Below, piece after piece: positions 4,732-37,435 of a stretch of 64,000 bases of DNA; the first letter of the stretch is position 1; each line of letters starts with the position of its first letter. Source of the stretch: an uncultured Clostridium sp. (GTDB lineage: Bacteria > Bacillota > Clostridia > TANB77 > CAG-508); NCBI GenBank assembly GCA_947570695.1, contig CANOVB010000005.1, positions 67,487 to 131,486 of the forward strand, read 5' to 3'. A program made the translations under genes and the position numbers. A model generated the notes under the pieces. The model did not search any database and had not been told where the DNA came from. It saw nothing but the letters and a program-made list of their open reading frames with translations.

Positions 4732-6288
4732 TTGAAAAAAATAGAAATTACCGATTTTTTTAAAGGAATAATATCATTAGTAATATCTCAAATTCTTATA
4801 AAAATTTTTGGAGTTATTTATAGTTTATATATAACAAATAAAAATGGATTTGGAGATGAAGGAAATGCTATATATATGAGCGGATATCAGATATATGCAT
4901 TATTACTTACAATATCTTCTATTGGAGTTCCGAATGCAATTTCTAAAATTATTTCGGAGAAAAAATCCATAAAAGATTACACAAATTTAGAAAGAATATT
5001 CAAAATATCAGTATTTGTTTTTGCAGTAATTGGATTTTTTGGAACAGTTACATTATTTATTTTTTCTGGTTTTATTGCTGAAAACATTTTACAAATACCA
5101 GAAACAAAATTGAGTTTAATGGTTTTATCGCCAGCAATATTTTTTGTTTCAATAAGTTCTGTTGTTAGAGGATATTGCAATGGAGAGAATAAAATATATG
5201 TTACAGCCAAATCGCAGTTTTTTGAACAAATAATCAAATCAGTATTAACAATTACACTTGTAGAAATATTATCAAGATTTCCAAATTCAAATACAGAAAT
5301 TTTAGCTGCAATCGCAAATTTTGCAACAACTTTAGCGACTTTTTGTAGCCTAATGTACATATTAAAAAAGTATAGAAAAATAAAAAAACAAAATATATAT
5401 TTAAGTAAATATAATTTTCCTAAAGAAAGAATATTTACTATAATAAGAAAAGTTTTGATAATATCAATTCCTATGACTACAAGTGCTATTTTAACATCAT
5501 TAGGAAAAAATGTTGATTCTGTTACAGTAGTTAGAATACTTAAAAATATTTTAGGAGAAGAAACTGCAATTATAAAATATGGAATATTAAGTTCTAAAGT
5601 GGATATATTAATAGCATTACCATTATCATTTAATATTGCAATTTCAACAGCGTTAATACCAGAAATATCCAGAAAGAAGGCAATTAATGATATATCAGGA
5701 ATAGTAAAAAAAATAGAAACTTCTATATTAATTACTATTATAATAGGAATACCATCTACATTTGGAATGTGTTTTTATTCTGAGCAAATTTTTGATTTAT
5801 TATATCCAAGAGCAAATGAAGGAGCAATTTTACTTAGCATAGCATCTTTTAGTATAATATTTTCATTACTTGTACAGACTATAAATGGAATCCTTCAAGG
5901 TCTGGGGAAAAATAATGTACCAGTTTTAGCATCAGTAATTGGATTATTAGTAAAAATATTTTCTAATATAATATTAATAAGAGTAGAGGGAATATATGAA
6001 AAAGGAGCAATTATAGGAAATATATTATCAAATATAGTTTCATTTATAATTGTATATATTGCATTAATAAGAAATATTGATATAAAATTAAATTTGCTTA
6101 AAAAAGGGATAAAACCTATTTTAGCAAGTGCGATTATGATATTTTTTTCATTAAAAATATATAATTTTTTAGTATTAAAAAATATAAATATTAATATTTG
6201 TACAATAAGTTCTATTTTCTTTGCTATACTAATTTATATTTTTTGCTGCTTTTTTATGAAAATTTTAAAGAAAAATGAAATCTCGTGA
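4732..6288 (+). CDS. spoVB: MOP-superfamily polysaccharide/lipid II flippase (SpoVB/MurJ-like)
   Basis: 518 aa with about 14 predicted TM segments. TTG start preceded by GAGAGAGGGAAAG. Size and architecture are typical of SpoVB in spore formers; the symbol is tentative. Confidence 0.6.
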   Translation: MKKIEITDFFKGIISLVISQILIKIFGVIYSLYITNKNGFGDEGNAIYMSGYQIYALLLTISSIGVPNAISKIISEKKSIKDYTNLERIFKISVFVFAVIGFFGTVTLFIFSGFIAENILQIPETKLSLMVLSPAIFFVSISSVVRGYCNGENKIYVTAKSQFFEQIIKSVLTITLVEILSRFPNSNTEILAAIANFATTLATFCSLMYILKKYRKIKKQNIYLSKYNFPKERIFTIIRKVLIISIPMTTSAILTSLGKNVDSVTVVRILKNILGEETAIIKYGILSSKVDILIALPLSFNIAISTALIPEISRKKAINDISGIVKKIETSILITIIIGIPSTFGMCFYSEQIFDLLYPRANEGAILLSIASFSIIFSLLVQTINGILQGLGKNNVPVLASVIGLLVKIFSNIILIRVEGIYEKGAIIGNILSNIVSFIIVYIALIRNIDIKLNLLKKGIKPILASAIMIFFSLKIYNFLVLKNININICTISSIFFAILIYIFCCFFMKILKKNEIS

Positions 6289-6470
6289 AAGCCTTATAAA
6301 TAGCAGACAAACCGGAAAAAAATTCTTAAAAAAGCTGAAAAATAAGTAAATTTTTCAAAAAAAAATAAAAAAAAGAAGGATTTTAGCACATTTTGGCGAA
6401 TAAAAATATTGTAGAACAAATTAATAGATATTCTACATAACACTAAAATCTATTAGGAGGTAATTTTAAA

Positions 6471-6749
6471 ATGAACAAAGCTGAATTAATCGCAGCAATA
6501 GCTGCAAAAACAGGAGAAACAAAAAAATCTGCAGAAGAATCTGTAAACGCATTTGTTAGCGTAGTAACAGAATCTTTAACAAAAGGTGAGAAAGTTCAAT
6601 TAGTTGGATTTGGATCTTTTGAAGTAAGAAAAAGAGCAGCTAGAAAAGGAAGAAACCCACAAACTAAAGAAGAAATCAAAATACCTGCATCAAAAGCTCC
6701 AGTATTTAAAGCTGGAAAAGCATTAAAAGATTTAGTAAATAAAAAATAG
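6471..6749 (+). CDS. hup: DNA-binding protein HU
   Basis: [11 protein letters not shown]...[42 protein letters not shown] is the canonical HU/IHF signature. AGGAGG RBS. Confidence 0.97.
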
Positions 6750-6810
6750 GAATTATATAAAGTTTATATGAATTCATAGGAAAGTAGTGCTAAGGTGGCA
6801 CTGCTTTTTT

Positions 6811-7030
6811 ATTTAGTAGAAAAGAGCTATGCATCATACTAAATAAAAGCTTGCGCTAATTTTACACACAAATTTAATAATGCCAATATTAAAAATATTG
6901 ATATACTGATACTGTAATAGCTAAAACTTAAATAGTATTAGTAATTTTGTGTGAGCGAACATTTCTTAATTATGTGAAATGAGCTACAGATAAGTTATTG
7001 CAGAGGAAAGATGTGGACAATTTAGAAAAG
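6811..7030 (+). repeat. Intergenic repeat family IGR-1, copy R1, with an IGR-2 element nested in its module-C hairpin loop
   Basis: Hairpin atttagta..tactaaat, then aaaagcttgcgctaattt, then stem cacacaaatt(6864-6873)/aattttgtgtg(6943-6953) enclosing about 70 nt homologous to 21241-21312. It is followed by ctacagataagttattgcagag, which is shared with copy R2. Confidence 0.7.
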
Positions 7031-7212
7031 TTTTATCTTTTACATATAATATTTAGGCAATTTAGAAAAAAGTTTATTTTGCATATTAAGTATTTTTAGC
7101 TTTGTTTAAAAAATAAGTTTTATAGTTTTCTTGAAAAAACATATAAGTAATGATAACATAATAAAAAACAATTTATTTGTATTTTATTAAAAATAAAGAA
7201 ATGGTGGATATT

Positions 7213-7704
7213 ATGAAAAAAACTCTAAAAGTTATTTGTATAATTTGTGTAATAAGTTTAATTATTCTATTTACAATTAAAAATTTAAAAAAGAGTAATA
7301 ATTTAGAAAGAGATTTTGAAAAAGAACAGCAGGTTTTAGCAATAATAGAGGAAGATAGAAATAATTATATGGGACAAGGTGATGAATATATATCATATTG
7401 GGCTCCTAAACAAGCTATTTTAGATGAAGAAATAGATAAGCTTTTTATAAGACATTTAGAAGAAAAATACTATGAAGAATTAATGAATAATATTTCTAGT
7501 GAAATGAAAGAAAATTCTAGTGAAATTCCAAAAAGTACAAAAAAATTAGTAAGAGAAGCAATAAATTTATATAATGGAAATAAAATTACAGATTATGAAA
7601 AAGAAGTCTTAAAATATATTTTTGAAGGAATATATTTTACAGTTTCCACTGAAGATAGTAAGCTAGCGGATGAATTAAATACAACTGGAATAGAATTTAA
7701 ATAA
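7213..7704 (+). CDS. Hypothetical membrane-anchored protein
   Basis: Preferred start is ATG 7213 (MKKTLKVICIICVISLIILF signal/anchor) after GGTGGA. The ORF track starts at 7177. Confidence 0.6.
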   Translation: MKKTLKVICIICVISLIILFTIKNLKKSNNLERDFEKEQQVLAIIEEDRNNYMGQGDEYISYWAPKQAILDEEIDKLFIRHLEEKYYEELMNNISSEMKENSSEIPKSTKKLVREAINLYNGNKITDYEKEVLKYIFEGIYFTVSTEDSKLADELNTTGIEFK

Positions 7705-7777
7705 AAGTATTGCAAAAAGAAATTAGTAATAATATAATATAAGTGATTTTACAAAGGATAAATGGAGGTGTAGCAAA

Positions 7778-9333: not shown

Positions 9334-9846
9334 ATTATAAAACAAGAATTGCCTATAAATAGACAAATAAGAGAAAAAGAAGTTCAAGTAATTAGTGATA
9401 CAGGAGAAAAATTAGGAGTTCTTTCTTTAGATGCAGCATTAGAGCTTGCAGAAGAAAAGAATTTAGATTTAGTATTAGTTTCACCAAATGCAAGTCCAGT
9501 AGTTTGTAAATTAATGAACTATGGAAAATACAAATTTGAACAAGCTAAGAAAGAAAAAGAGTCTAGGAAGAATCAAAAAACTGTTGAATTAAAAGAAATA
9601 AGGGTTACTCCTAATATAGGAGACCATGACTTTGGATTTAAAAGTAAAAATGCTAGAGCTTTTTTAGAGGCTGGTAATAAAGTAAAATTTACTGTTAGAT
9701 TTAGAGGAAGAGAATTAAATAATGTTAAAGCTGGTGAAACAGTTTTAAATAAATTTGTTGAAGATTTAGCTGATATTTCAACAGTAGAGAAAAAGCCATT
9801 TTTGGAAGGTAAGACAATGTTTGTAATTTTAACAAAAAAAATATAA
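9334..9846 (+). CDS. infC: Translation initiation factor IF-3 (ATT start codon)
   Basis: ATT at 9334 lies 6 nt after GGAGG (9323-9327). An AUU start is the conserved autoregulatory feature of infC. IIKQELPINRQIREKEVQVI...VCKLMNYGKYKFE is typical IF-3. The ORF-track extension back to 9256 is hydrophobic nonsense. Confidence 0.93.
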   Translation: MIKQELPINRQIREKEVQVISDTGEKLGVLSLDAALELAEEKNLDLVLVSPNASPVVCKLMNYGKYKFEQAKKEKESRKNQKTVELKEIRVTPNIGDHDFGFKSKNARAFLEAGNKVKFTVRFRGRELNNVKAGETVLNKFVEDLADISTVEKKPFLEGKTMFVILTKKI

Positions 9847-9870
9847 AAAAATGTGAAGGGAGATTTCAAA

Positions 9871-10074
9871 ATGCCAAAATTAAAAACAAACAAGGCTGCA
9901 AGTAAGAGATACTCTTATACAGCTAAAGACAAAGTAAAAAGAACAAAAGCTAATAGAAGACATCGTTTAGCTACAAAAACAACAAGACAAAGAAAAACAG
10001 GAAAAATTCAAAATGCATATGCAGATAAAACTGTAGAAGCAGGAATTAAAAGATTATTACCATATGGTAACTAG
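9871..10074 (+). CDS. rpmI: 50S ribosomal protein L35
   Basis: MPKLKTNKAASKRY... ATG 9871 follows GAAGGGAG. The track start at 9853 (GTG) is unlikely. Confidence 0.93.
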   Translation: MPKLKTNKAASKRYSYTAKDKVKRTKANRRHRLATKTTRQRKTGKIQNAYADKTVEAGIKRLLPYGN

Positions 10075-10107
10075 GATTAAATTTAGGATAGAAGGAGTTG
10101 AAAATAA

Positions 10108-10458
10108 ATGGCAAGAGTAAAAACAGCAAGAACAACAAGAGCAAGACATAAAAAAGTATTAAAACAAGCAAAAGGATACTATGGAGCAAAACATTATAGA
10201 TTTAGAAATGCTAAACAAGCAGTTATGAAATCTGGAATGTATGCTTATGTAGGAAGAAAAGATAAAAAATCAGATTTTAGAAAATTATGGATAGTTAGAA
10301 TTAACGCAGCAGCTAGAATGAATGGATTAACATACAGCAAAATGATAGCTGGACTTAAAAAAGCTAATGTAACAATAAATAGAAAAATGTTAGCAGAAAT
10401 AGCTGTTTCAGATAGCAAAGCCTTTGCAGAACTTGCAGAGATTGCTAAAAAAGCATAA
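10108..10458 (+). CDS. rplT: 50S ribosomal protein L20
   Basis: [28 protein letters not shown]... is canonical L20. Confidence 0.97.
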
Positions 10459-10524
10459 AATTAAAAAGTAAATTTGGTAAAAAAATCAAAGGTTATTAAA
10501 AATAATTTTTGATTTTTTTTAATA

Positions 10525-10553
10525 TTGCAAAAATGCCTAGAGTGATATATAAT
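10525..10553 (+). promoter_or_regulatory. Sigma-A type promoter of leuS
   Basis: TTGCAA (10525-10530), 17-nt spacer, TATAAT (10548-10553). It follows the rplT terminator aaaatcaaa...tttgatttttttt. Confidence 0.55.
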
Positions 10554-10589
10554 AAAAAACATCATAATAAAGAAAAGGGAGAGAAAGCT

Positions 10590-13502
10590 ATGGGATATAA
10601 TTTTAAAGAAGTAGAAGAAAAATGGCAAAAAAAATGGTATGAAGAAGGAACTTTTAATGCAAAACAAGATTTTACAAATAAAAAGAAATGGTATGGATTA
10701 ATAGAATTTCCTTATCCATCAGGGCAAGGTCTACATGTAGGACATCCAAGATCTTATACAGCATTAGATATTATTGCAAGAAAGAAAAGAATGGAAGGAT
10801 ATAATGTTTTGTATCCTATTGGTTTTGATGCTTTCGGACTCCCAGCTGAAAATTATGCTATTAAAAATCATGTTCACCCAAAAATAACAACAGAAAATAA
10901 TGTAAATCATTTTAGAGAACAATTAAAATCTTTAGGATTTTCTTTTGATTGGTCAAGAGAAGTAAATACAACAGATCCAGAATATTATAAATGGACACAA
11001 TGGATTTTTATTCAATTATATAAACATGGATTAGCTTATAAAGCTACTATGCCAATTAATTTCTGTACTGGTTGTAAAGTTGGATTAGCAAATGAGGAAG
11101 TTGTTAATGGTGTTTGCGAAAGATGTGGAAGCCCAGTAGTGCAAAAAGAAAAATCACAATGGATGCTTAAAATAACAGAATATGCTCAAAGATTAATTGA
11201 TGATTTAGATGATATAGATTATTTAGATAAAATAAAAGCTCAACAAAAGAATTGGATAGGTAGAAGTGAAGGGGCAGAGGTTAATTTTAAAGTTGCCTCT
11301 GATGAAGATATTATATTTAATAAAGATTCAAAAGTAGAGAAAATTAATTCTAGTGAAAATGATTCTTTATTAATTTATACTACTAGACCAGATACAATAT
11401 TTGGAGCAACATATATGGTTGTAGCTCCAGAACATGAATTAATAAAAAAATATGCAGATAAAATTACTAATTTATCAGAAGTAGAAGAATATAAGAAAAA
11501 AGCTGCTTTAAAATCTGATTTTGAAAGATCAGAGTTAAATAAAGAAAAAACTGGTGTTGAAATTAAAGGACTTAAAGCAATTAATCCATTAACAAATGAA
11601 GCTATTCCAATTTGGATTTCTGATTATGTTTTAATTACTTATGGGACAGGTGCTATTATGGCAGTTCCTGCACATGATGATAGAGATTTTGAATTTGCAA
11701 CTAAATTTAATTTACCTATAAAACAAGTTATTGCACCAGTATTTTATGGAACAGGAGATTCAGAAGTAAGACCAGATAAGAAAAATACAGAAAGAAAAGT
11801 CATTAATGTAGTTGTAAAACATCCAACAGAAAAAAAATTCTTATGTGTAAACAATGATAAATTTGGATTTAAGAATTTTGTTATGGGTGGATTTGAAGGA
11901 GAAGAAACGCCAGTAGAAGCAGCAGCTAGAGAGCTTAGAGAAGAAACTGGTTATACTGATTTTAGAGTGGATTATGTTTTTGATTTTATTTATAAATCAA
12001 AATTTTATGCTGCACATAAAGATGTAAATAGAGATATTACTTGTTATACTGTTGCTGTAACTTTAAATTCATTAAAACAAGAAAAAGTATCAGAAGAAGA
12101 ACAAAAAATTCAATATCCAGTATGGGTAAATGCAGATAAATTAAATGAATATTTAACAACAGAAGAACATATATACACATATTCATTATATGAAAAACCT
12201 CAAGCCTTTACAGATGTTGAAAAAGGAGTTGCTATAAATTCAGATTTCCTAAATGGATTATCTTCAAAAGAAGCTATAAAAAAGGCAACAGATTATATTG
12301 AAGAAAAGAAATTAGGAGAAAGAAAAGTAAATTATAAATTACGTGATTGGGTATTTTCTCGTCAAAGATATTGGGGAGAGCCAATACCAATGGTATATTG
12401 CGAAGATTGTGGCTGGAATCCAATTAAAGAAGAAGAATTACCACTCGTACTTCCAGATATAGAAGATTATGAACCGGGAGAAAATGGAGAGTCACCTTTA
12501 GCAAAACAAACAGAATGGATAAAAACAAAATGTCCATGTTGTGGTAAGGATGCTAAAAGAGAAACAGATACAATGCCACAGTGGGCAGGTTCTTCATGGT
12601 ATTTCCTAAGATATATGGATGCTCATAATAAAGAAGCTTTGGCTTCAAAGGAAGCATTAGAATATTGGTCACCAATAGATTGGTATAATGGAGGAATGGA
12701 GCATACAACACTTCACTTATTATACTCAAGATTTTGGCATAAATTTTTATATGATATTGGTGTTGTTCCAACAAAAGAGCCATATCAAAAACGTACTTCA
12801 CATGGTATGATTTTAGGTGGAAATGGTGAAAAAATGTCTAAATCAAAAGGAAATGTTATAAATCCTGATGATATAGTTAAAGAGTTTGGTGCAGATACTT
12901 TTAGAGTATATGAAATGTTTATGGGACCTTTTGATCAAACAGCACCATGGTCTATGGAATCTATTAGAGGATGTGGCAAATTCTTAGATAGAGTATGGAA
13001 TATGCAAGATATTTTGGTAGACGGAGATGAATATTCTAAAGAGCATGAAAAAATGATGCATAAAGCTATAAAAAAAGTTACTTCAGATATTGAGGAAATG
13101 AAATTTAATACTTCAGTTGCAGAATTTATGAAAATGACAAATGAATTTTATAAGGATAAAAAGATTAATAAGGCAGAATATAAAACATTTTTACAATTAT
13201 TAAATCCATTTGCACCACATATGACAGAAGAATTATTTAATATTCTAGGAGAGACTAAGACAATAAATGAAACACCTTGGCCAAAATATGATGAAGCTAA
13301 AACTATTGATGATGAAATAGAAATACCAGTACAAGTAAATGGAAAGGTAAAAGCTGTTATTACTGCTAATAAAGAAGCTTCTCAAGAAGAAGTTAAGGCT
13401 ATAGTAGATAGTAATGAAATAATTAAAAATGCTTTGGCAGGAAAAAATGTAGTAAAAGAAATTTATGTAAAAGGAAAAATATACAATATAGTAGTTAAAT
13501 AA
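10590..13502 (+). CDS. leuS: Leucyl-tRNA synthetase carrying an internal Nudix-domain insertion (11733-12227)
   Basis: Start is ATG 10590 ([16 protein letters not shown]) after AAGGGAGAG. HIGH-type [13 protein letters not shown], two CxxC...CxxC zinc knuckles, and the editing-domain blocks [19 protein letters not shown] and [14 protein letters not shown] Nudix box [23 protein letters not shown] lies at 11886-11954. Confidence 0.95.
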
Positions 13503-13996: not shown

Positions 13997-14572
13997 CTAA
14001 TATTTTAAATTAGGTATTTGCTTTGATATTGATTCAAAATTTGGTTTATATTTTTTTAACATATCATAAAATTTTTTTGAATGTGTTTTATATTTTAAAT
14101 GACAGAATTCATGGAAAATTATATATTCAATAATTTCTTTTGAATACATTACAATATATGGGTTTACAAGAATTGCTTGTAAGTCTTTATCACATGTAGC
14201 AAGATAGCCAGAAATTTTTTGAATTTCATAGTCTTCAGGCGCAAATCCAAAAGTATGTCTTGCTTTTTCCATAACATTTTCTATTTCGTTTTCAGCTATT
14301 TTTGTATACATTTTTAATAAAATGGTATTTAATAATTTTTGATTATTTCTTTTTCTATAATTCATAGGTAAATGAATATTTATAAAATTTTCTTCAAGAT
14401 TTAATTCTGGTTTTTCTATATTTAAATAATATACATTTACAGAGTAATTTAATCCGAAAATTCTAGTGAATTTTGGTAATAAAGTTTCATCTTTTCCTAA
14501 TATGAAATGTTCATTATTACTATATTCAAATTCCTTGATATTATTGCTTTTTACTCTTTTAAAAATATTCAT
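13997..14572 (-). CDS. YgjP-like (DUF45/M48-type, SprT-like) zinc metallopeptidase
   Basis: C-terminal HEFCHLKYKTHSKKFY (an HExxH...H motif in the characteristic DUF45 context). GGAGG RBS. Confidence 0.75.
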   Translation of the reverse strand: MNIFKRVKSNNIKEFEYSNNEHFILGKDETLLPKFTRIFGLNYSVNVYYLNIEKPELNLEENFINIHLPMNYRKRNNQKLLNTILLKMYTKIAENEIENVMEKARHTFGFAPEDYEIQKISGYLATCDKDLQAILVNPYIVMYSKEIIEYIIFHEFCHLKYKTHSKKFYDMLKKYKPNFESISKQIPNLKY

Positions 14573-14621
14573 TTTTTTATCCTCCTACAAAATATATGTT
14601 CGGTAAAACTTTGTTTGTTTT

Positions 14622-14673
14622 ATTTTACAATTTAAAAAATAAAATGTCAATACTTTTTCGAAAAAATGTTCGG
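14622..14673 (-). promoter_or_regulatory. Promoter of the ygjP-like gene with a flanking LexA (Cheo)-like box
   Basis: On the minus strand: TTGACA (14650-14645), 17-nt spacer, TAAAAT (14627-14622). CGAAAAAATGTTCG (14659-14672) matches CGAACnnnnGTTCG at 13 of 14 positions. A second half-site ATGTTCGGTA lies at 14596-14605. Confidence 0.45.
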
Positions 14674-14700
14674 TATTTTTAAAAAATAAAGAAACTTTAT

Positions 14701-14734
14701 AAAATAAAAAACGCGGGGGCGGAAAACCGCCCCC
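14701..14734 (-). terminator. GC-rich rho-independent terminator at the end of island 1
   Basis: gggggcgg-aaaa-ccgccccc (14715-14734) followed on the minus strand by a U-run (plus-strand aaaataaaaaa 14701-14711). Confidence 0.85.
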
Positions 14735-14821
14735 AACATGGTTTGAAGATTGCAATAGTAAGGGATTTGAAAGTGCTAATTTACCGTAATCCGAAGTGCC
14801 AGCATGTGAACATCACGAACG

Positions 14822-16099
14822 TTACGTGATATTCAATGTTTTGCCGTTGGTCAAGACCACTTGTGTTACGAGTCCCAATTTGTTGGTGTTGAAGCTCGCA
14901 GCGTCGTAACAGAACCGATAGCCGTCCTGAGGGCGGTCATAGATGGAACTGACGAACACCTGATTATCCCTGATATAGCAGAACTGCTTATCAGAGATGA
15001 AGCCGAAAGCGGTGATGTTTGACATGTACCACCCTGTATAGATTCTCGAGGCGATAATCGTCCCATTGAGATACAGGGAGCCGTCTGTAAGCATCAGAGT
15101 GTTGCTTTCAACTGTGCCCTTGGTGTACAAGGTAGCATAGGTGTCCTTTACGACAGCGTAGGTTTCCTTAGCAATCCACTTGTCGTTTGTGGAGGTGAAT
15201 TGCTTCAGGGTGTAAGTGGACTTCTCTGTAACGATTTCCGAGAGGAAACCATTGCTGTCAGTCCTGAAGGTCTTGAACTTGCTGTCCAGGGTAACCTTCT
15301 CCGCAGAGTACCAGTTTCCGAAAGTGAAACGGTACAGAGTACCATTGCTTTCGTAGAGGTACACGTTGTAGCTGGTATCGAATCCCAAGAATTTAGCACC
15401 CTTAAGGGTGTCGGACAGCCGGACGCCGTGAGTTGCATTGAGAACGCTCTTTTCGTCTTTGCTCACAATGATGGAAACCTTCAGGTTGCCAAACTCGTAA
15501 GCGTTACGAACGAACTCGCTCTCAGCGTTGGTGTACATTTCAACACGGCTGGTGTTATTTCCCGGCCTCTGAGGAACAGAAGGCTGAGAAGGCTGGCTGG
15601 GTTGAGACGGCTGGGAAGGCTGAGTCGGCGTACTGGGAACGGTGCTACCAGTAAGAGACTGGTTACCACTTGTGGTTTGCACCGAAGTTGCCAGATCGTC
15701 GCTGTTGTAAAGCAGACATGTTACGCCAGAAGCGTACCAAGTCGATTGCTTACCATCGCTTCCAACGCTAATCAGTGCACCAGCGCTGGTGACGTAGAAG
15801 AAATCGCCATTTGTGGCAAAGCCGTTGTAACGGGAACCGGAGCCAGCAGAGTTGCTCGCAAGAACGGTTCCATTGTTGTTATACACGGTGCTGCCGATGC
15901 TGTAAAAGCTTTTGCTGGGAACGTGGGCGTCCTGCCGGCGGTCATAGGTGTACAGCTTGTACCAGGTGCAGCCCGAGGAGGCGTCATCATAGGTAAAGCC
16001 GTACGGCGCTGTGTCGGCGGTCGTGGCGGCGAAAGCAGTGGGGCAGACCCCAAAGAAGCAGCACACAACCAGGAACAATGCGATCAAAGATTTTTTCAT
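14822..16099 (-). CDS. Secreted two-domain protein of unknown function with a (PSQ)n linker; GC-rich and foreign in composition
   Basis: Start is ATG 16099 (MKKSLIALFLVVCCFFGVCPTAFA|ATTAD, a signal peptide) after GAAAGG. The linker is PSTPTQPSQPSQPSQPSQPSVPQRPG. GC3-rich codons differ from all neighbouring genes. Confidence 0.8.
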   Translation of the reverse strand: MKKSLIALFLVVCCFFGVCPTAFAATTADTAPYGFTYDDASSGCTWYKLYTYDRRQDAHVPSKSFYSIGSTVYNNNGTVLASNSAGSGSRYNGFATNGDFFYVTSAGALISVGSDGKQSTWYASGVTCLLYNSDDLATSVQTTSGNQSLTGSTVPSTPTQPSQPSQPSQPSQPSVPQRPGNNTSRVEMYTNAESEFVRNAYEFGNLKVSIIVSKDEKSVLNATHGVRLSDTLKGAKFLGFDTSYNVYLYESNGTLYRFTFGNWYSAEKVTLDSKFKTFRTDSNGFLSEIVTEKSTYTLKQFTSTNDKWIAKETYAVVKDTYATLYTKGTVESNTLMLTDGSLYLNGTIIASRIYTGWYMSNITAFGFISDKQFCYIRDNQVFVSSIYDRPQDGYRFCYDAASFNTNKLGLVTQVVLTNGKTLNIT

Positions 16100-16247
16100 G
16101 TTAGTCAACCTTTCTGTGTTAAAATAAATCTTCAAAACCATGTTAGTTCAACAAATAGCCAAAAGGTCAGCTAAATAAAGTTGAACATCAAATCCCATAA
16201 AATCATTATAGCACAAACTAGTAAAAAAGGCAAATTTATGTAAAGCT

Positions 16248-16287
16248 ATAAAAAGCGTGCCCCAGCTTGCACTGGGGCACATTTTTG
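16248..16287. terminator. GC-rich bidirectional terminator between the two island-1 genes
   Basis: gtgcccca-N8-tggggcac with an A-run upstream and a T-run downstream. Confidence 0.8.
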
Positions 16288-16308
16288 TGAATAAGATTCA
16301 CCTAAAAA

Positions 16309-16749
16309 TTAGAAATTCGCGTTTGGATCATCTGATAATTTGTACAGTAAATAGTCTGGGTCAACCTGAACGATATAGTGACTTCCACTTTTGGTGGTGA
16401 AAAGAAACCAGTCGGGTGCAATTTCTTCAAATGACTCTACTAGAGTCGTATTGAGATATTTTACACTGGTATCTGTAACACTAACAATAACGGAAGCTCT
16501 TTTACCCTTTGTAGGGTAACATAAGCAGACTCCAACTGTGGATTTATGTTTTAACTGAAGTTCAGTTATGTTAACAAACCATTCCACAGGGAAAAAATGC
16601 TCTACGTCGTCAATCTTGACAATGTACCGTTCAAAACCACTCATGTATACTGTCCACGAGGCCTCATATGCTTCTCCAACTTCTAAAAGCCTAAAATTGC
16701 ATTTTGGACCGCCGTGGATATCAATAGAACCATTGTACACGAGTTTCAC
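16309..16749 (-). CDS. Hypothetical 146-aa protein (island 1, intermediate GC)
   Basis: GTG start 7 nt after GAGGTG. It has its own terminator at 16248-16287. No motif recognised. Confidence 0.6.
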   Translation of the reverse strand: MKLVYNGSIDIHGGPKCNFRLLEVGEAYEASWTVYMSGFERYIVKIDDVEHFFPVEWFVNITELQLKHKSTVGVCLCYPTKGKRASVIVSVTDTSVKYLNTTLVESFEEIAPDWFLFTTKSGSHYIVQVDPDYLLYKLSDDPNANF

Positions 16750-16998
16750 AACACATCACCTCTAAATAATAATTTTTGAAATGCTGAGCTTTAGATTTGT
16801 AAATATGAAACTTATCCATAGTATGATAACATGTTTGCATAAAAAGGTCAAACTAGTTTTATTGAGTTTTAATCGTGTGTTTGTATTTTTATGTCACAAT
16901 CTGCATTTAATTGTACAATATTTACAATTAATTTATAAACATAAACTCAATGGTAAGTGTTTTGTATTTTATTAGAAGTTTTAATAACTTGTAAAATA

Positions 16999-17367
16999 TT
17001 ATTGTTTCTTAATCTTAGGTTTAGATACCAAAGAAGCAATATAACCAAAGAAAATTGCTGCTGCGATTCCTCCTGCTGCTGCTTTAATTCCACCAGTAAA
17101 TGCACCAATAAAACCAGAAGAACTAATTTCTGATATTGTTCCTTTAGCAAGTAGATTACCGAATCCTGTTAATGGAACTGTTGCACCACAACCAGCAAAA
17201 TCAATTAAATATTTATACCAGCCAAGACCACCTAAAATAACTCCTAATGTTACATAAGTTACAAGTATACGTGCAGGAGTTAGTTTAGTTTTATCTATCA
17301 AAATCTGTCCAATAATACAAATAACTCCTCCAACAATAAATGCTTTTAAAATCATGTACCAATCCAT
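16999..17367 (-). CDS. spoVAE: Stage V sporulation protein AE (SpoVAE/SpoVAEB-type)
   Basis: MDWYMILKAFIVGGVICIIGQILID...GATVPLTGFGNLLAKG is typical of SpoVAC/AE-family membrane proteins. Start at ATG 17367 is preferred over the track start at 17448. Confidence 0.85.
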   Translation of the reverse strand: MDWYMILKAFIVGGVICIIGQILIDKTKLTPARILVTYVTLGVILGGLGWYKYLIDFAGCGATVPLTGFGNLLAKGTISEISSSGFIGAFTGGIKAAAGGIAAAIFFGYIASLVSKPKIKKQ

Positions 17368-28144: not shown

Positions 28145-28180
28145 AAATATTGACCCAAAAACTTTTAGGAGGAAATTGTG

Positions 28181-28528
28181 ATGAACGGTAGCAACAATCG
28201 CACTATGGAGTTGACGGCAATGAACGAGCAAGGCGTTTTCACCCTGATTTTCCGGGATGACGAGCTGCTGAGAGAGTTCGAGAACATGGTTTCCATGTTC
28301 AACCGGAAGCAGGAAGAGCTGATCGTCACCGAGATCGGCGAAAGCAACGGCAGAATCTTTGAGGTCAAGCGCGTCGAGGGACGCCCCACTTGTTGGGAGC
28401 TGGCTCTGCACAAGTATATGAGCCTGTCCAACACCACAAAGACCAACAAGATTACCGGAAAGAAGTACGAGCCTGTACTGTTTACGCCGCTGCGCTTCGT
28501 GAGTCAGACAGAAGAAGCGGCCTGCTAA
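28181..28528 (+). CDS. Hypothetical 115-aa protein (GC-rich cassette, island 2)
   Basis: AGGAGG (28167-28172), 8 nt, then ATG 28181. About 52% GC in sampled lines. GC3-rich codons. No motif recognised. Confidence 0.7.
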   Translation: MNGSNNRTMELTAMNEQGVFTLIFRDDELLREFENMVSMFNRKQEELIVTEIGESNGRIFEVKRVEGRPTCWELALHKYMSLSNTTKTNKITGKKYEPVLFTPLRFVSQTEEAAC

Positions 28529-31527: not shown

Positions 31528-32037
31528 TTACAGCAGACTGAGAAACTCAGGGGGACAAAACAGAGGTCTGTAGTCCGTGAAGTCCTTAATCAGCTGTTTC
31601 AGGTTTTCTTGACTGATATTATCAGCCACATAGGCAACCAAAGGCTTGAGTAGATGCTTGCCGGGGGCGTTCTGAACAAGAGCGATTCCGTAAACATCTT
31701 TTTTTACAGTCAGAATCACATCTTTGGAGGTCTTTTCCTTGTAATCACGGATTGCTTTCCAAAACTCATCAAAAGAGGTAACATTGGAAGCTTTGGTGCT
31801 GAAGGAAAGAGACCAAGCGATTTTCTGACCGCGGCTTTTCGGCATTTCAGCCCTGATGACAGAGGGAGCTTTGTTCATTCCGTTGTGCGAAATGTAGAAA
31901 CATTCCCCAATGCTTGCTTGGCAGTTAGTGGATGGGTATCCACATAAAGATGTCCGCAACTCATGACCATCAAATGAAGCTCTAACAGATTCAGAGATTG
32001 TGATGGACATAGGAGATTTCCACAAAAAAACCTGCAT
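31528..32037 (-). CDS. Hypothetical 169-aa protein (island 3, GC-rich)
   Basis: ATG 32037 lies 5 nt after GGAAAGG. About 52% GC in sampled lines. No motif recognised. Confidence 0.65.
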   Translation of the reverse strand: MQVFLWKSPMSITISESVRASFDGHELRTSLCGYPSTNCQASIGECFYISHNGMNKAPSVIRAEMPKSRGQKIAWSLSFSTKASNVTSFDEFWKAIRDYKEKTSKDVILTVKKDVYGIALVQNAPGKHLLKPLVAYVADNISQENLKQLIKDFTDYRPLFCPPEFLSLL

Positions 32038-32336: not shown

Positions 32337-32747
32337 ATGAAAAGACGGAGAAAAAAGCCTAGTCCTATGAGTAAAATTTTGGTATTCGTGGCAGGGGTAC
32401 TTTTGGGAGTATCAGCTACACTGAGCTATTTTACATTTTCTGAGTACCAAAATAGTCCCCCTAAACCCGCCAACCCAAGAATGAACATAGTTGCACACGG
32501 CTCATGGATTCATTCTAATGATGGTGGCAGTTATACTATTTCAGCTTTAGGTTATGGAAAACTGTACTCTAATGTCGCGTTCAGTAATGAGGTTTCAGCA
32601 ACTGAGCACCCTGTCGAGGTTCGTAGTGAGGGATATACGATACAAATCGACATTGTAGGATGGTATAAAAAAACAGTAACTATGACTGCTGGAGAGTCAC
32701 TGCTAATAGGTGTACCTGAGGCTTATCTTTATGTAATTGTTGTCTAA
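32337..32747 (+). CDS. Hypothetical 136-aa membrane-anchored protein (island 3)
   Basis: AGGAGGAG RBS. MKRRRKKPSPMSKILVFVAGVLLGVSATLSYFTF (basic N-terminus plus one TM), followed by a beta-rich domain. Confidence 0.65.
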   Translation: MKRRRKKPSPMSKILVFVAGVLLGVSATLSYFTFSEYQNSPPKPANPRMNIVAHGSWIHSNDGGSYTISALGYGKLYSNVAFSNEVSATEHPVEVRSEGYTIQIDIVGWYKKTVTMTAGESLLIGVPEAYLYVIVV

Positions 32748-36570: not shown

Positions 36571-36630
36571 TTGAATTTAATTATAAAAAATTAAAGAGTA
36601 GGAAAATAAAAAAGAAAGGAGATAAAATAT

Positions 36631-36735
36631 ATGGAAAATAGCAAAATGCATTATCAAACGCCAGAATTTACATATGGAGTGATGGTGGATATTTATAAAG
36701 AAATAGGAAAAGATAGCCCTTCTATCATAGAATAA
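36631..36735 (+). CDS. 34-aa peptide MENSKMHYQTPEFTYGVMVDIYKEIGKDSPSIIE
   Basis: AGGAGA lies 8 nt upstream of the ATG. It is paralogous to the ORF at 37024 through the shared Y-x-T-P-E-[FL]-x-x-G-x-[MI]-x-D-[IL]-[YF] motif. Confidence 0.55.
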   Translation: MENSKMHYQTPEFTYGVMVDIYKEIGKDSPSIIE

Positions 36736-36767
36736 ATATTGAAAAAACGAAATAAAGTATAAAAGTA

Positions 36768-36895
36768 TAATAACAAAAGAAAAGGAAAAATGAAACATGC
36801 ATAAACTTAAAAACGTTGCAAGAGTACATACACACACAAGTAGAAATTTAAAAGAAGAAAAAGAGTAGATAATATCTACTCTAGAGCTGTTGTAA
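36768..36895 (+). repeat. Direct repeat unit 2 (paralogue of 36368-36500)
   Basis: See unit 1. Contains the mini-ORF at 36797-36868 and the hairpin agagtagat-aat-atctactct (36862-36882). Confidence 0.85.
36797..36868 (+). CDS. Leader-like mini-ORF MHKLKNVARVHTHTSRNLKEEKE (23 aa)
   Basis: Same start context as 36394. The shorter AC tract puts it in a different downstream frame, so it terminates at a TAG inside the hairpin arm. Confidence 0.3.
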   Translation: MHKLKNVARVHTHTSRNLKEEKE

Positions 36896-36916
36896 ATCAA
36901 ATAATATTAAGAATAA

Positions 36917-37195: not shown

Positions 37196-37435
37196 CATAG
37201 TAAAAAAGGCGTTTGATTAAGAATTAAGTAGTAAATAAACTTTTTAAAAGAGAGCTTATGGTTGGTGAGAATAAGTAAAAGAATTTACGAAATCTACTCT
37301 TAAGAGTTTCTAGAAAACTAGACCGAGTTATTGCAGGTTATAGCAATTTGAAAGATGGATTAGATTAATCTAAAAAAGGTGGTACCGCGATATATTCGCC
37401 CTTATGTATTTTTTACATGGGGGCGTTTTTGTTTA
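37196..37435 (+). promoter_or_regulatory. T-box leader, probable Ser (UCU) specifier
   Basis: T-box sequence aaaaaaGGTGGTACCGCG (37372-37389). Terminator cgcccttatgta-ttttt-tacatgggggcg plus T5 (37397-37430). Stem-I AGAGA and GGTGAGA elements. The specifier-loop candidate is GAAA-TCT-A (TCT at 37293-37295). serS is the third gene downstream. Confidence 0.85.

Follow-up and report, generated by a model that had tools for sequence, protein, structure and literature searches.

A fast-evolving exported-protein cassette with a persistent GC excess and predicted pairing of its mRNA ends in the spoVAE-ygjP interval of uncultured gut Clostridia

The locus and its composition

The subject of this study is a GC-rich segment in a 64,000-nt stretch of the genome of an uncultured Clostridium sp. 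(GenBank assembly GCA_947570695.1, contig CANOVB010000005.1, positions 67,487 to 131,486); the whole stretch is called here the window, and positions are counted from its first letter. The segment (14703..16994, no strand assigned) holds two genes on the minus strand: gene A (14822..16099) encodes a protein of 425 aa that starts with MKKSLIAL and is predicted to be exported, and gene B (16309..16749) a protein of 146 aa. The left-hand neighbour is spoVAE (16999..17367, minus strand), the last gene of spoVAC-spoVAD-spoVAE, as recognised by Pfam matches on related contigs and by synteny, and the right-hand neighbour is the gene of a YgjP-like metallopeptidase (13997..14572, minus strand; Pfam PF01863, E 2.7e-23, and synteny). 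Nucleotide homology to the nearest relatives (blastn against the loci L022, L023 and L025; 84-90% identity in the flanks) is lost at about 16995 and regained at about 14702, so the variable segment runs exactly from the spoVAE stop codon to the region upstream of the ygjP promoter. As will be described, the locus brings together a cassette for a hypervariable exported protein, a GC anomaly that persists and a predicted double pairing between the untranslated regions (UTRs) at the 5' and 3' ends of one mRNA.

The composition anomaly is real and extreme. An initial annotation, made from the letters of the DNA alone, had described a GC-rich island here, and its two hand counts were exact on recount: 34 of 60 letters are G or C at 14881-14940, against 13 of 60 at 14581-14640. 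In 300-nt windows the GC fraction is 0.19-0.27 at 14350-14800 before the climb, 0.42-0.54 across 14650-16150, 0.34-0.41 on to about 16900 and 0.23-0.34 thereafter, both flanks being at about 18-33%. As a whole the segment has 43.7% GC and the remaining window 26.3-26.6%. Gene A reaches 51% GC, with a G+C fraction at third codon positions (GC3) of 0.64-0.65, compared with 26% and about 0.11 in the host; gene B is at 39% and 0.36. About 50 non-overlapping open reading frames (ORFs) of the window were compared, and the GC3 values of some 45 host ORFs among them lie between 0.075 and 0.196, IF3 and L20 included, with the single exception of a 107-aa ORF at 36577-36900 (0.28). The codons CTG, GGC, ACC and GCC, whose abundance in A had also caught the attention of the annotator, account for 41%, 45%, 48% and 26% of the codons of their amino acids in A, and for 0%, 5%, 2% and 3% in the host. 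Third positions of A are C in 0.43 and G in 0.21 of the cases; the GC skew at the island is about +0.1 on the plus strand, i.e. negative on the coding strand of A.

The 324-aa antisense ORF noted earlier opposite A is present in the ORF list (15200..16174, plus strand). It is a by-product of the stop-poor, GC-rich strand and no gene; one metagenome gene caller did call it as a gene (a 310-aa minus-strand call in L002). Both GC-rich hairpin terminators were likewise found where they had been placed (14735-14714 after A, 16281-16256 after B). The accompanying statement that their style is absent from host genes was too strong, as host terminators with G+C-containing stems exist (e.g. 37397-37425 and 41691-41653), even if these are less G+C-dense. 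As the annotation had it, the edges are unremarkable: the ORF list of the window has no integrase or transposase, the 64 kb contain no tRNA, and a check of the segment edges gave no direct repeats of note.

A look-up with the SpoVAD protein of the window recovered 21 contigs from many ENA and NCBI assemblies, each with spoVAE, the 146-aa gene, the 425-aa gene, ygjP and leuS. The loci L001-L005 are 99.3-99.9% identical to the window in nucleotide sequence over both junctions, the only difference in length being an 18-nt change in a Pro-Ser-Gln (PSQ) repeat. The exact protein B is also present on JGI contigs and a 99% copy of A on Logan contigs, with identical neighbours. An assembly chimera, which had been left as an option, or a contaminant would be suggested by the sharp compositional step and by nothing else; it is ruled out because more than 20 contigs, from assemblies and pipelines that are independent of each other (JGI, ENA, NCBI, Logan), have the same spoVAE-B-A-ygjP junctions, and its probability is negligible. 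The island is a true part of the chromosome and is fixed in this species.

The protein encoded by gene A

The first codons of A specify a signal peptide (MKKSLIALFLVVCCFFGVCPTAFA/A cut; 16025..16099, minus strand) that was assigned from the sequence and from a family alignment (A1). The A-x-A site is conserved in the family and A24 is invariant in the alignment, which points to a signal-peptide cleavage site at this place; in an AlphaFold2 (AF2) model the signal region has a low predicted local distance difference test score (pLDDT) and a helix at residues 4-15. In the model about 120 aa form an N-terminal domain and about 240 aa a C-terminal one, and the P/S/T-rich linker between them is disordered. 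Both domains are beta-rich and, to judge from the model, may be beta-propeller-like. The earlier description of a large exported protein with two beta-rich domains parted by a PSQ linker thus agrees with the signal peptide and the model. The P/S/Q linker (15560..15646, minus strand; pLDDT below 50 at residues 152-180; repeat family D1) holds an array of 9-nt repeats, and an 18-nt copy-number polymorphism, i.e. two PSQ units, is found between strains at 15597-15614 (Logan loci L004 and L005).

Protein A is rich in Thr, Ser, Gly and Tyr and poor in His and Met, a make-up that is also that of abundant surface proteins. It has no match in Pfam, PHROGs, NCBIfam, PADLOC or the PDB sequences. A recognisable catalytic or anchoring motif is absent, and SLH, CWB2, LysM and similar domains gave no Pfam or NCBIfam match at E<=1. 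Neither A nor B has a nucleotide or protein match in phage or plasmid collections, and a phage or plasmid origin was therefore rejected. The features of A are consistent with a Sec-exported protein, a secreted or surface factor under diversifying selection driven by the host or by phages, and the family probably serves uncultured gut Clostridia as a surface or secreted factor that faces the host or phages.

A clade-restricted family in an ancestral slot

A search among 5.8 billion clustered proteins returned 122 homologues of A, all of about 400-420 aa, unnamed and without Pfam domains, and a profile search of 1.84 billion cluster representatives gave only 65 matches. At least 30 homologues have an identity to A of 34-68%, and their hosts, as judged from the DNA available, are all AT-rich uncultured gut Clostridia. 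In the 5.8 billion proteins the closest non-self homologue is 65% identical and comes from the same locus of a genome with 26% GC, and no homologue from a GC-rich host was seen that is nearer than a remote relative. There are also distant superfamily members of 530-575 aa, again without known domains. Taken together, these sequences define a previously unnamed family of exported proteins for which the model suggests a propeller-like fold.

Approximately 30 distinct loci were collected from the DNA of homologues with 65%, 53% and lower identity and from one scan each of genome and metagenome collections; the loci recovered comprise 13 species-level genome bins and 14 metagenome loci. In 12 of the 13 genome bins spoVAC-spoVAD-spoVAE is followed by A, and in 11 of them ygjP, usually together with leuS, comes next (the contig of L019 ends just past A). 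The flank proteins are 70-97% identical to those of the window, A only 40-65%. Homologues of A fill the slot in every sampled relative with enough flanking DNA, the distant L026 type excepted, and only one of the two possible orientations of A is seen at all loci with flanks. The initial annotation had spoken of two orphan genes dropped between ygjP and spoVA. This is true of B, which is species-only and inserted, and it is not true of A, which has homologues in the same slot in 13 genome bins and in metagenome contigs. The slot is ancestral to the clade and so is gene A, the local allele of a clade-restricted, fast-evolving family of exported proteins.

The spoVA-ygjP-leuS interval is a plasticity zone in this clade. 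In L017 the slot holds, on either side of A, an ATP-binding cassette (ABC) exporter and a radical-SAM/SPASM gene with a 146-aa ORF (5398-7185, 9440-11527), and in L010 a radical-SAM gene and a small ORF lie between ygjP and leuS (12260-13403). The distant L026 subgroup (34% identity) is not beside spoVA; it lies between TrbL/VirB6-like plus TrwB/VirD4-like genes and tadA-dnaX (L026 3944-6910, 9523-12596).

Expression cassette and RNA architecture

Upstream of A, and like all other elements of its cassette on the minus strand, there is a promoter with a -35 box TTGCCT, a 17-nt spacer and an extended -10 box TGcTATAAT (16205..16233), recognised by consensus and by family comparison. The motif TGnTATAAT precedes nearly all family members (TGnTAAAAT in L040; the TG is missing in L026/L041, L037 and L044), and from it we infer a strong, vegetative promoter of the sigma-A type. 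The leader is about 100 nt long. The order along the predicted transcript is P1, HP, P2, Shine-Dalgarno sequence (SD), coding sequence (CDS), P1', P2' and terminator, where HP is a leader hairpin and P1' and P2' are the 3'UTR partners of P1 and P2.

The 5' arm of P1 (UAUGGGAUUUGA, 16188..16199) lies about 5 nt into the predicted transcript of the window and is complementary to P1' (UCAAAUCCC, 14762..14770). In the family, P1 begins 12-15 nt past the -10 box (about +5) and complements a segment 10-60 nt after the stop codon. The pair is UAUGGGAUUUG/CAAAUCCCAUA in the allele groups II and III and AUAGGGAUU/AAUCCCUAU in group I, and the sequences are unrelated to these in L037 (AGAAUUAUGCGU/GCGCAUAAUUCU), L040, L044 and L026. 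P1 is found in most family members, with only about 6 bp in L019/L021. The hairpin HP (16146..16186; RNAalifold) consists of an outer stem GUUCAAC/GUUGAAC and an inner stem; of the 13 pairs of this two-tier structure 10 show compensatory double changes. A covariance model of the leader (R1) matches once immediately upstream of each A gene in groups I-III and the L037/L040 type, loci outside its training set included, and nothing else at E<0.2 in 320 kb; the leaders of the L026 and L044 types are too divergent to match.

The 5' arm of P2 (ACAUGGUUUUGAAGAUU, 16127..16143) is located just upstream of the SD GAAAGG (16109-16114), and its partner P2' (AAUCUUCAAACCAUGU, 14736..14751) abuts the terminator stem. 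P2 is found 2-15 nt upstream of the SD and has 10-21 bp in nearly every copy (21 bp in L022), a bulge or mismatch breaking the helix in L031 and L032. From one subfamily to another its sequences are unrelated, e.g. GCUCGAGAAGUGCAC/GUGCACUUCUCGGGC in L026 and GUUUCUCAAGGCCAUAA/UUAUGGCCUUGAGGAAC in L037, and in all copies inspected it ends upstream of the SD and never covers it. The intrinsic terminator of A (14714..14735; terminator search) has 9 pairs, 8 of them G-C, followed by a T-tract, and equivalent compact GC stems follow every family member. In the window, P1 has 9 bp and a predicted free energy of -13.8 kcal/mol, and P2 18 bp and -20.4 kcal/mol; the two UTRs cofold at -63.3 kcal/mol, compared with -48.2 +/- 4.0 kcal/mol for shuffled sequences.

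The pairing was scored by comparing each 5'UTR with every 3'UTR of 17 subfamily representatives, using ungapped helices and a permutation of cognate versus non-cognate partners; this scoring replaced long-window RNAduplex, whose output was noisy. For P2 the cognate mean was 13.1 against 8.84 +/- 0.46 for permuted partners, a value reached in none of 20000 permutations, and for P1 it was 9.76 against 8.25 +/- 0.34, reached in 2 of 20000. The helices amount to 258 bp when read in the sense strand, 207 in the antisense strand and 197 with Watson-Crick pairs only, and the non-Watson-Crick positions are G-U in the mRNA sense only, which favours RNA pairing over DNA inverted repeats. As judged by this comparative evidence, the 5'/3'UTR pairings and the hairpin are conserved through compensatory change.

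Three loci have tandem A paralogues: L016, L010 and L018, which does not differ from L010 here. At L010 (7900-10713) and L016 (7842-10661) each copy has its own promoter, P1-HP-P2 leader, 3'UTR partners and terminator, and therefore the unit of duplication is the whole cassette. The L026 subgroup, found in a different neighbourhood, retains P1 and P2 pairings of its own sequence.

No Rfam family matches the elements of the cassette; the only two matches were sub-threshold, both at the terminator of B and both most likely due to chance. One of these is BjrC68 (23.5 bits, gathering threshold 39) at 16247-16311 on the minus strand, over the terminator hairpin of B, where the GC-rich nature of the stem-loop is the most likely cause of the match.

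A GC excess shared by the family

The housekeeping genes of the flanks have in all 13 genomes a GC3 of 0.09-0.13 and a GC fraction at four-fold degenerate sites of 0.03-0.085. For the A alleles the four-fold value is 0.18-0.55, and their GC3 is 0.23 in L022, 0.33-0.52 in others, 0.55 in L006, 0.63 in L031 and 0.65, the highest value, in the window. The DNA contexts of all of the roughly 30 A loci are AT-rich, with flanks of 24-35% GC. Codons ending in a pyrimidine (NNY), codons ending in a purine (NNR) and four-fold degenerate codons shift together, with C above G: 74% of the NNY codons end in C, and the G-ending fraction of NNR is 0.68. GC3 is uniform along A, and mosaic or recombinant blocks inside the gene were rejected on this ground. 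The 5'UTRs have a GC fraction of 0.20-0.40 irrespective of the CDS, the first 40 nt past the stop codon are at 0.25-0.30 in the GC-rich alleles L006, L014, L015 and L031, and in several GC-rich alleles the GC boundaries fall at the start and stop codons. The GC excess is family-wide, mostly synonymous and essentially confined to the CDS; such an excess with AT-rich UTRs is not what a fresh foreign block predicts.

An Akashi-type test found no difference in GC3 between conserved and variable residues. The codons of IF3 and L20 are not shifted at all (C in 0.12 of NNY codons and in 0.01 of four-fold codons). Within the flanks, four-fold identity between the window and its relatives is 0.42-0.66, with about 0.45 expected at random, so synonymous divergence among these species is large. 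The window and L006 alleles, which share 67% amino-acid identity, have a four-fold identity of 0.33 against about 0.28 at random; i.e. they are saturated, and both are GC-rich. Related group III alleles in one host sub-clade (flanks 84-91% identical) range in GC3 from 0.33 to 0.63. The saturation and the range of GC3 are not what one old import with uniform neutral amelioration thereafter would give. This leaves two readings: GC-rich alleles arrive again and again from an unsampled reservoir, or the GC content is kept high in situ by a force that is specific to the gene and variable in strength. A parsimony polarisation of the changes, in which those from A or T to G or C (W->S) were at least as numerous as the reverse (S->W) on several branches, was not relied on because the method mis-polarises under strong compositional bias and the outgroups are distant.

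Only three further small ORFs of the window deviate in GC3: 28178-28528 (plus strand, 0.74), 31528-32037 (minus strand, 0.48) and 32337-32747 (plus strand, 0.31). A promoter of its own and a GC-rich terminator seem to go with each of them, and the first (28181-28528 as searched) has only three fragmentary homologues among the 5.8 billion proteins. GC-rich ORFans therefore recur in this genome. Inspection of the other GC-rich islets by eye gave no convincing UTR pairing like that of A.

Discordant history of the A allele

In a neighbour-joining tree of A proteins the window allele falls in group III, together with L006, L031, L032, L014, L015 and the first copies at L010 and L016 (L010_1, L016_1), in 60 of 60 bootstrap replicates. 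It is the sister of L006 in 60 of 60 and joins L022/L023 in none. A tree of the flanks was built from LeuS, YgjP and SpoVAC (1130 columns; spoVAD, which is split in L006, was left out on account of an artefactual placement of L006) and puts the window together with L022, L023 and L025 in 87 of 100 replicates, with L006 on a deep branch. The nearest relatives by flanks thus carry group I alleles, the window a group III allele, and the same division is seen in the leaders, the motifs of the window being of the group II/III type and those of its nearest relatives of the group I type. As the tree of A is discordant with the flanks, some non-vertical history or paralogue sorting of A is likely. This may be either an exchange of the whole cassette between lineages or a differential retention of ancient tandem paralogues; the two are not separable here, as it is uncertain where the species tree has its root relative to L006.

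Origin of the GC excess

The explanation that we consider, as a whole, reasonably probable is that of a conserved-slot exported-protein cassette with 5'/3'UTR pairing, exchange or sorting of allele classes, and maintenance of the GC content in situ. The resident A cassette (promoter, P1-HP-P2 leader, SD, ORF, 3'UTR with P1' and P2', terminator) travels as a unit, and its allele class would be exchanged between lineages or sorted from ancestral tandem paralogues. The ends of its mRNA would pair, P1 with P1' and P2 with P2', the latter stacked on the terminator, and this pairing could keep RNases away from the 5' end and the leader, or adjust translation. The outcome would be that a secreted or surface protein under diversifying selection is made in large amounts and for a long time. 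The CDS would be kept GC-rich in situ by a gene-specific force, which could be selection, acting on the mRNA or the coding sequence, or a W->S bias that goes with recombination. We favour such maintenance (selection, with biased conversion less likely) over repeated import because the hosts are AT-rich, the UTRs are AT-rich, the boundaries follow the CDS, saturated alleles are still GC-rich and sister alleles differ widely. A more specific version, to which we would give only tentative credence, is that selection on the A mRNA for fewer AU-rich RNase sites and more structure keeps the GC content up in genomes with a neutral GC3 of about 0.1, and that together with the closed loop this yields a long-lived, high-output message for a hypervariable secreted protein. 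If this were true, the family would be a replicated natural case of synonymous GC enrichment kept by selection and coupled to bacterial 5'-3' UTR pairing.

The initial annotation had read the island as a recent, unameliorated acquisition from a higher-GC Firmicute. In the form that is compatible with a resident cassette, the CDS of A (or the segment) would be such an import from a higher-GC source, and the excess of the family would reflect serial imports at different stages of amelioration. The GC3 of 0.65, with CTG, ACC, GGC, AAG and CAG preferred, agrees with this, as we take such a preference to be typical of mid-GC Clostridia. So does the discordance between the A phylogeny and the flanks, and across alleles a falling GC3 means that C3 goes down and T3 up with pyrimidines still high, which is like transition decay from a C3-rich ancestor. 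The three other GC3-rich small ORFs in the same 64 kb, of which the one searched is an ORFan, point in the same direction, as do the distant superfamily members P0205 and P0215, which have the amino-acid make-up of GC-richer hosts, and the genes resembling a type IV secretion system that adjoin the L026 subgroup. However, a higher-GC donor is nowhere visible: the nearest non-self protein (65%) is from a genome with 26% GC and from the same locus, and all of the roughly 30 loci with DNA lie in AT-rich flanks (24-35% GC). Moreover, the promoter, leader and 3'UTR elements are AT-rich and homologous to those of alleles in AT-rich hosts, several GC-rich alleles have their GC borders at the start and stop codons, the alleles of the window and of L006 are both GC-rich in spite of synonymous saturation, and the edges have no mobility genes, tRNA or repeats. 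What stands of the original proposal is the anomaly itself, the orphan status of B and a non-vertical component; its core claim for A does not stand, and we regard import as unlikely.

GC-biased gene conversion at a recombination hot spot, a rival for the cause of the GC excess only, would drive W->S changes at a hypervariable locus with a discordant tree and with tandem paralogues as possible conversion partners. It would account for the shift of all codon classes and of the first and second codon positions (GC1, GC2) and for the missing codon-accuracy signal, and GC-rich antigen loci that recombine within AT-rich genomes have a precedent in the vls locus of Borrelia (PMC11499132). On the other hand, conversion tracts should ignore the CDS borders at which the enrichment ends, the GC-richest alleles (window, L031 and L006) are single-copy at the locus, and there are no silent cassettes in the window. 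A rise of about 50 points of GC3 is also too large, being to our knowledge far beyond the effects reported so far for biased conversion in bacteria, and we hold this explanation to be quite improbable. Translational selection, under which A would be the most highly expressed gene and C-ending codons optimal, agrees with the 74% of C-ending NNY codons, with the apparently strong promoter, structured leader and tight terminator, and with a protein rich in Thr, Ser, Gly and Tyr and poor in His and Met. It is nevertheless very unlikely given that G-ending NNR codons rise equally (to 0.68), that CTG supplies 41% of the Leu codons against 0% in the host, that IF3 and L20 are unshifted (C in 0.12 of NNY and 0.01 of four-fold codons) and that GC3 is the same at conserved and variable residues. 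Finally, P1/P1' and P2/P2' could be inverted repeats in the DNA at which a site-specific invertase flips the CDS relative to the promoter, i.e. a device of phase variation. Inverted complementary segments of 10-21 bp do bracket the SD and CDS with the promoter outside, and many family members are found on very short contigs, as invertible or hypervariable loci can give. Yet A is co-oriented with spoVA and ygjP at every locus with flanks, the helix mismatches are G-U in the mRNA sense only, the order P1, P2...P1', P2' is not that of a nested palindrome, and no recombinase is nearby in the window or at related loci, which makes an invertase extremely unlikely.

Several points weigh against in-situ maintenance of a cassette with paired mRNA ends. 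On the side of composition, the first 40 nt of the window's own 3'UTR are also 50% GC; GC1 and GC2 are slightly raised too, as under a general compositional pressure; G-ending NNR codons rise as well, which argues against simple tRNA adaptation; and selection for translational accuracy was not seen in the A family by the Akashi-type test, as follows from the equal GC3 at conserved and variable residues. The codon profile of A is, we presume, like that of a native gene of a mid-GC clostridial genome, and with three other GC3-rich small ORFs in the window a recurrent entry of GC-rich DNA from an unsampled source is possible. The candidate force would have to hold GC3 at 0.65 against 0.11 in the genome. 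On the side of the RNA, P1 is short and its permutation signal weaker than that of P2, and the order of P1 and P2 is crossing and non-nested, so that both cannot sit in one simple panhandle; there may be a pseudoknot-like closure, alternative pairings, or a 3'UTR that acts after processing. High output, stabilisation and surface location of A are all things that we infer.

A GC-rich gene in an AT-rich genome is routinely taken as a fresh transfer, and here many species show the same anomaly in the same slot, without a donor in view. Should the composition be maintained in situ, the family would be a replicated natural experiment on whether selection, biased conversion or import raises the GC content of bacterial genes, and a reason for caution with composition-based island callers.

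Comparison with known systems

It is useful to compare the A cassette with the few bacterial mRNAs whose two UTRs are known to interact. In the hbs mRNA of B. subtilis, a 14-bp interaction between 5'UTR and 3'UTR modulates and limits cleavage by RNase Y (PMC5737220). Both are monocistronic Firmicute mRNAs with a structured leader and with a 5'/3'UTR helix of similar length by the initiation region (PMC5737220). The A cassette differs from hbs in as much as it has two crossing helices and a conserved leader hairpin, covarying family-wide, it encodes an unrelated protein and it is known from sequence alone. In the icaR mRNA of S. aureus the two UTRs also pair (PMC3868564), and a 3'UTR motif on the SD region is reported to repress translation. 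Base pairing between both UTRs of one mRNA, cis-regulatory in icaR, is shared, whereas P2 of A ends 2-15 nt upstream of the SD and leaves it uncovered, unlike the icaR motif. Beside these few examples, the predicted double covarying 5'UTR-3'UTR pairing with its leader hairpin is a family-wide comparative case.

The vls cassettes of Borrelia have 49.1% GC in a genome of 28.6% GC, and their authors read this as selectively maintained (PMC11499132). A is similar in being a variable exported-protein locus near 50% GC in an AT-rich genome. The vls locus, however, consists of arrays of silent cassettes with a strong positive GC skew and G-runs in the coding strand, and A has C-rich third positions and a negative skew on its coding strand; also, the variation of A is seen between species and that of vls within a clone. 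The 64-kb window contains no second A-like sequence that could be a silent cassette, and tandem full-length paralogues exist in some relatives only.

Surface-layer (S-layer) and other surface cassettes, such as slpA of C. difficile and slpA of Lactobacillus, code for a signal peptide and two domains, are preceded by a strong promoter and a long structured leader, diverge extremely in sequence even among close lineages and are replaced as alleles, like cassettes, at a fixed locus. A resembles them in its signal peptide and two domains, in a promoter that its consensus suggests to be strong, in a long structured leader, in its divergence and in a possible exchange of alleles at a fixed locus. 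Unlike S-layer genes, A has no SLH, CWB2 or other wall-anchoring domain, and its fold, to judge from the model, may be propeller-like. At first sight the segment is also like a classical acquired genomic islet, given its atypical composition, sharp borders and ORFan content (gene B). The differences are that the slot and A are ancestral and that there are no mobility genes, tRNA, flanking repeats or donor; absence from the same locus in close relatives is true of gene B only and not of A.

Gene B and neighbouring genes

Gene B has a GTG start and the ribosome-binding site AGAGGTGA. The protein search returned no homologue of B but itself, B is absent from the locus of every relative, and Pfam, PHROG, NCBIfam and PADLOC gave no match; the orphan status assigned to it earlier was thus confirmed, as it is present in this species only. 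A single-sequence AF2 model (pLDDT 41.6) has no confident fold. A promoter-like site with TTGACC, a 17-nt spacer and TG-TATCAT lies upstream (16823..16851, minus strand; consensus scan only), and a terminator (16256..16281, minus strand) separates B from the promoter of A, so that by their sequence features A and B are two independent monocistronic units. B is a species-specific ORFan inserted between spoVAE and the promoter of A, and it is probably expressed, given its good ribosome-binding site, the promoter-like site and its own terminator.

The genes around the slot offer some observations of their own. In L006-L009 (about 6414-7716), which belong to the mouse-gut species with the 65%-identical A, spoVAD is split (194 + 154 aa) and spoVAE truncated (79 aa) in four independent assemblies, which suggests that the spoVA operon is decaying in the L006 lineage. 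LeuS of the window (10509-13502, plus strand) has a NUDIX domain inserted after the editing domain, at residues of about 434-552 (Pfam PF00293, E 1.2e-9). All contigs of this species have the insert (LeuS of 970 aa), and the LeuS of L006 (811 aa) and of L010 (865 aa) lacks it. Two copies of the motif TACCGAACAT(A/T)TTTT, at 14591-14605 and 14661-14675, bracket the ygjP promoter (14622-14650), and the same motif is found before ygjP in relatives. Since it resembles what we take to be the Firmicute LexA (Cheo) box, CGAAC-N4-GTTCG, the motif hints that the YgjP/SprT-like metallopeptidase may be SOS-regulated.

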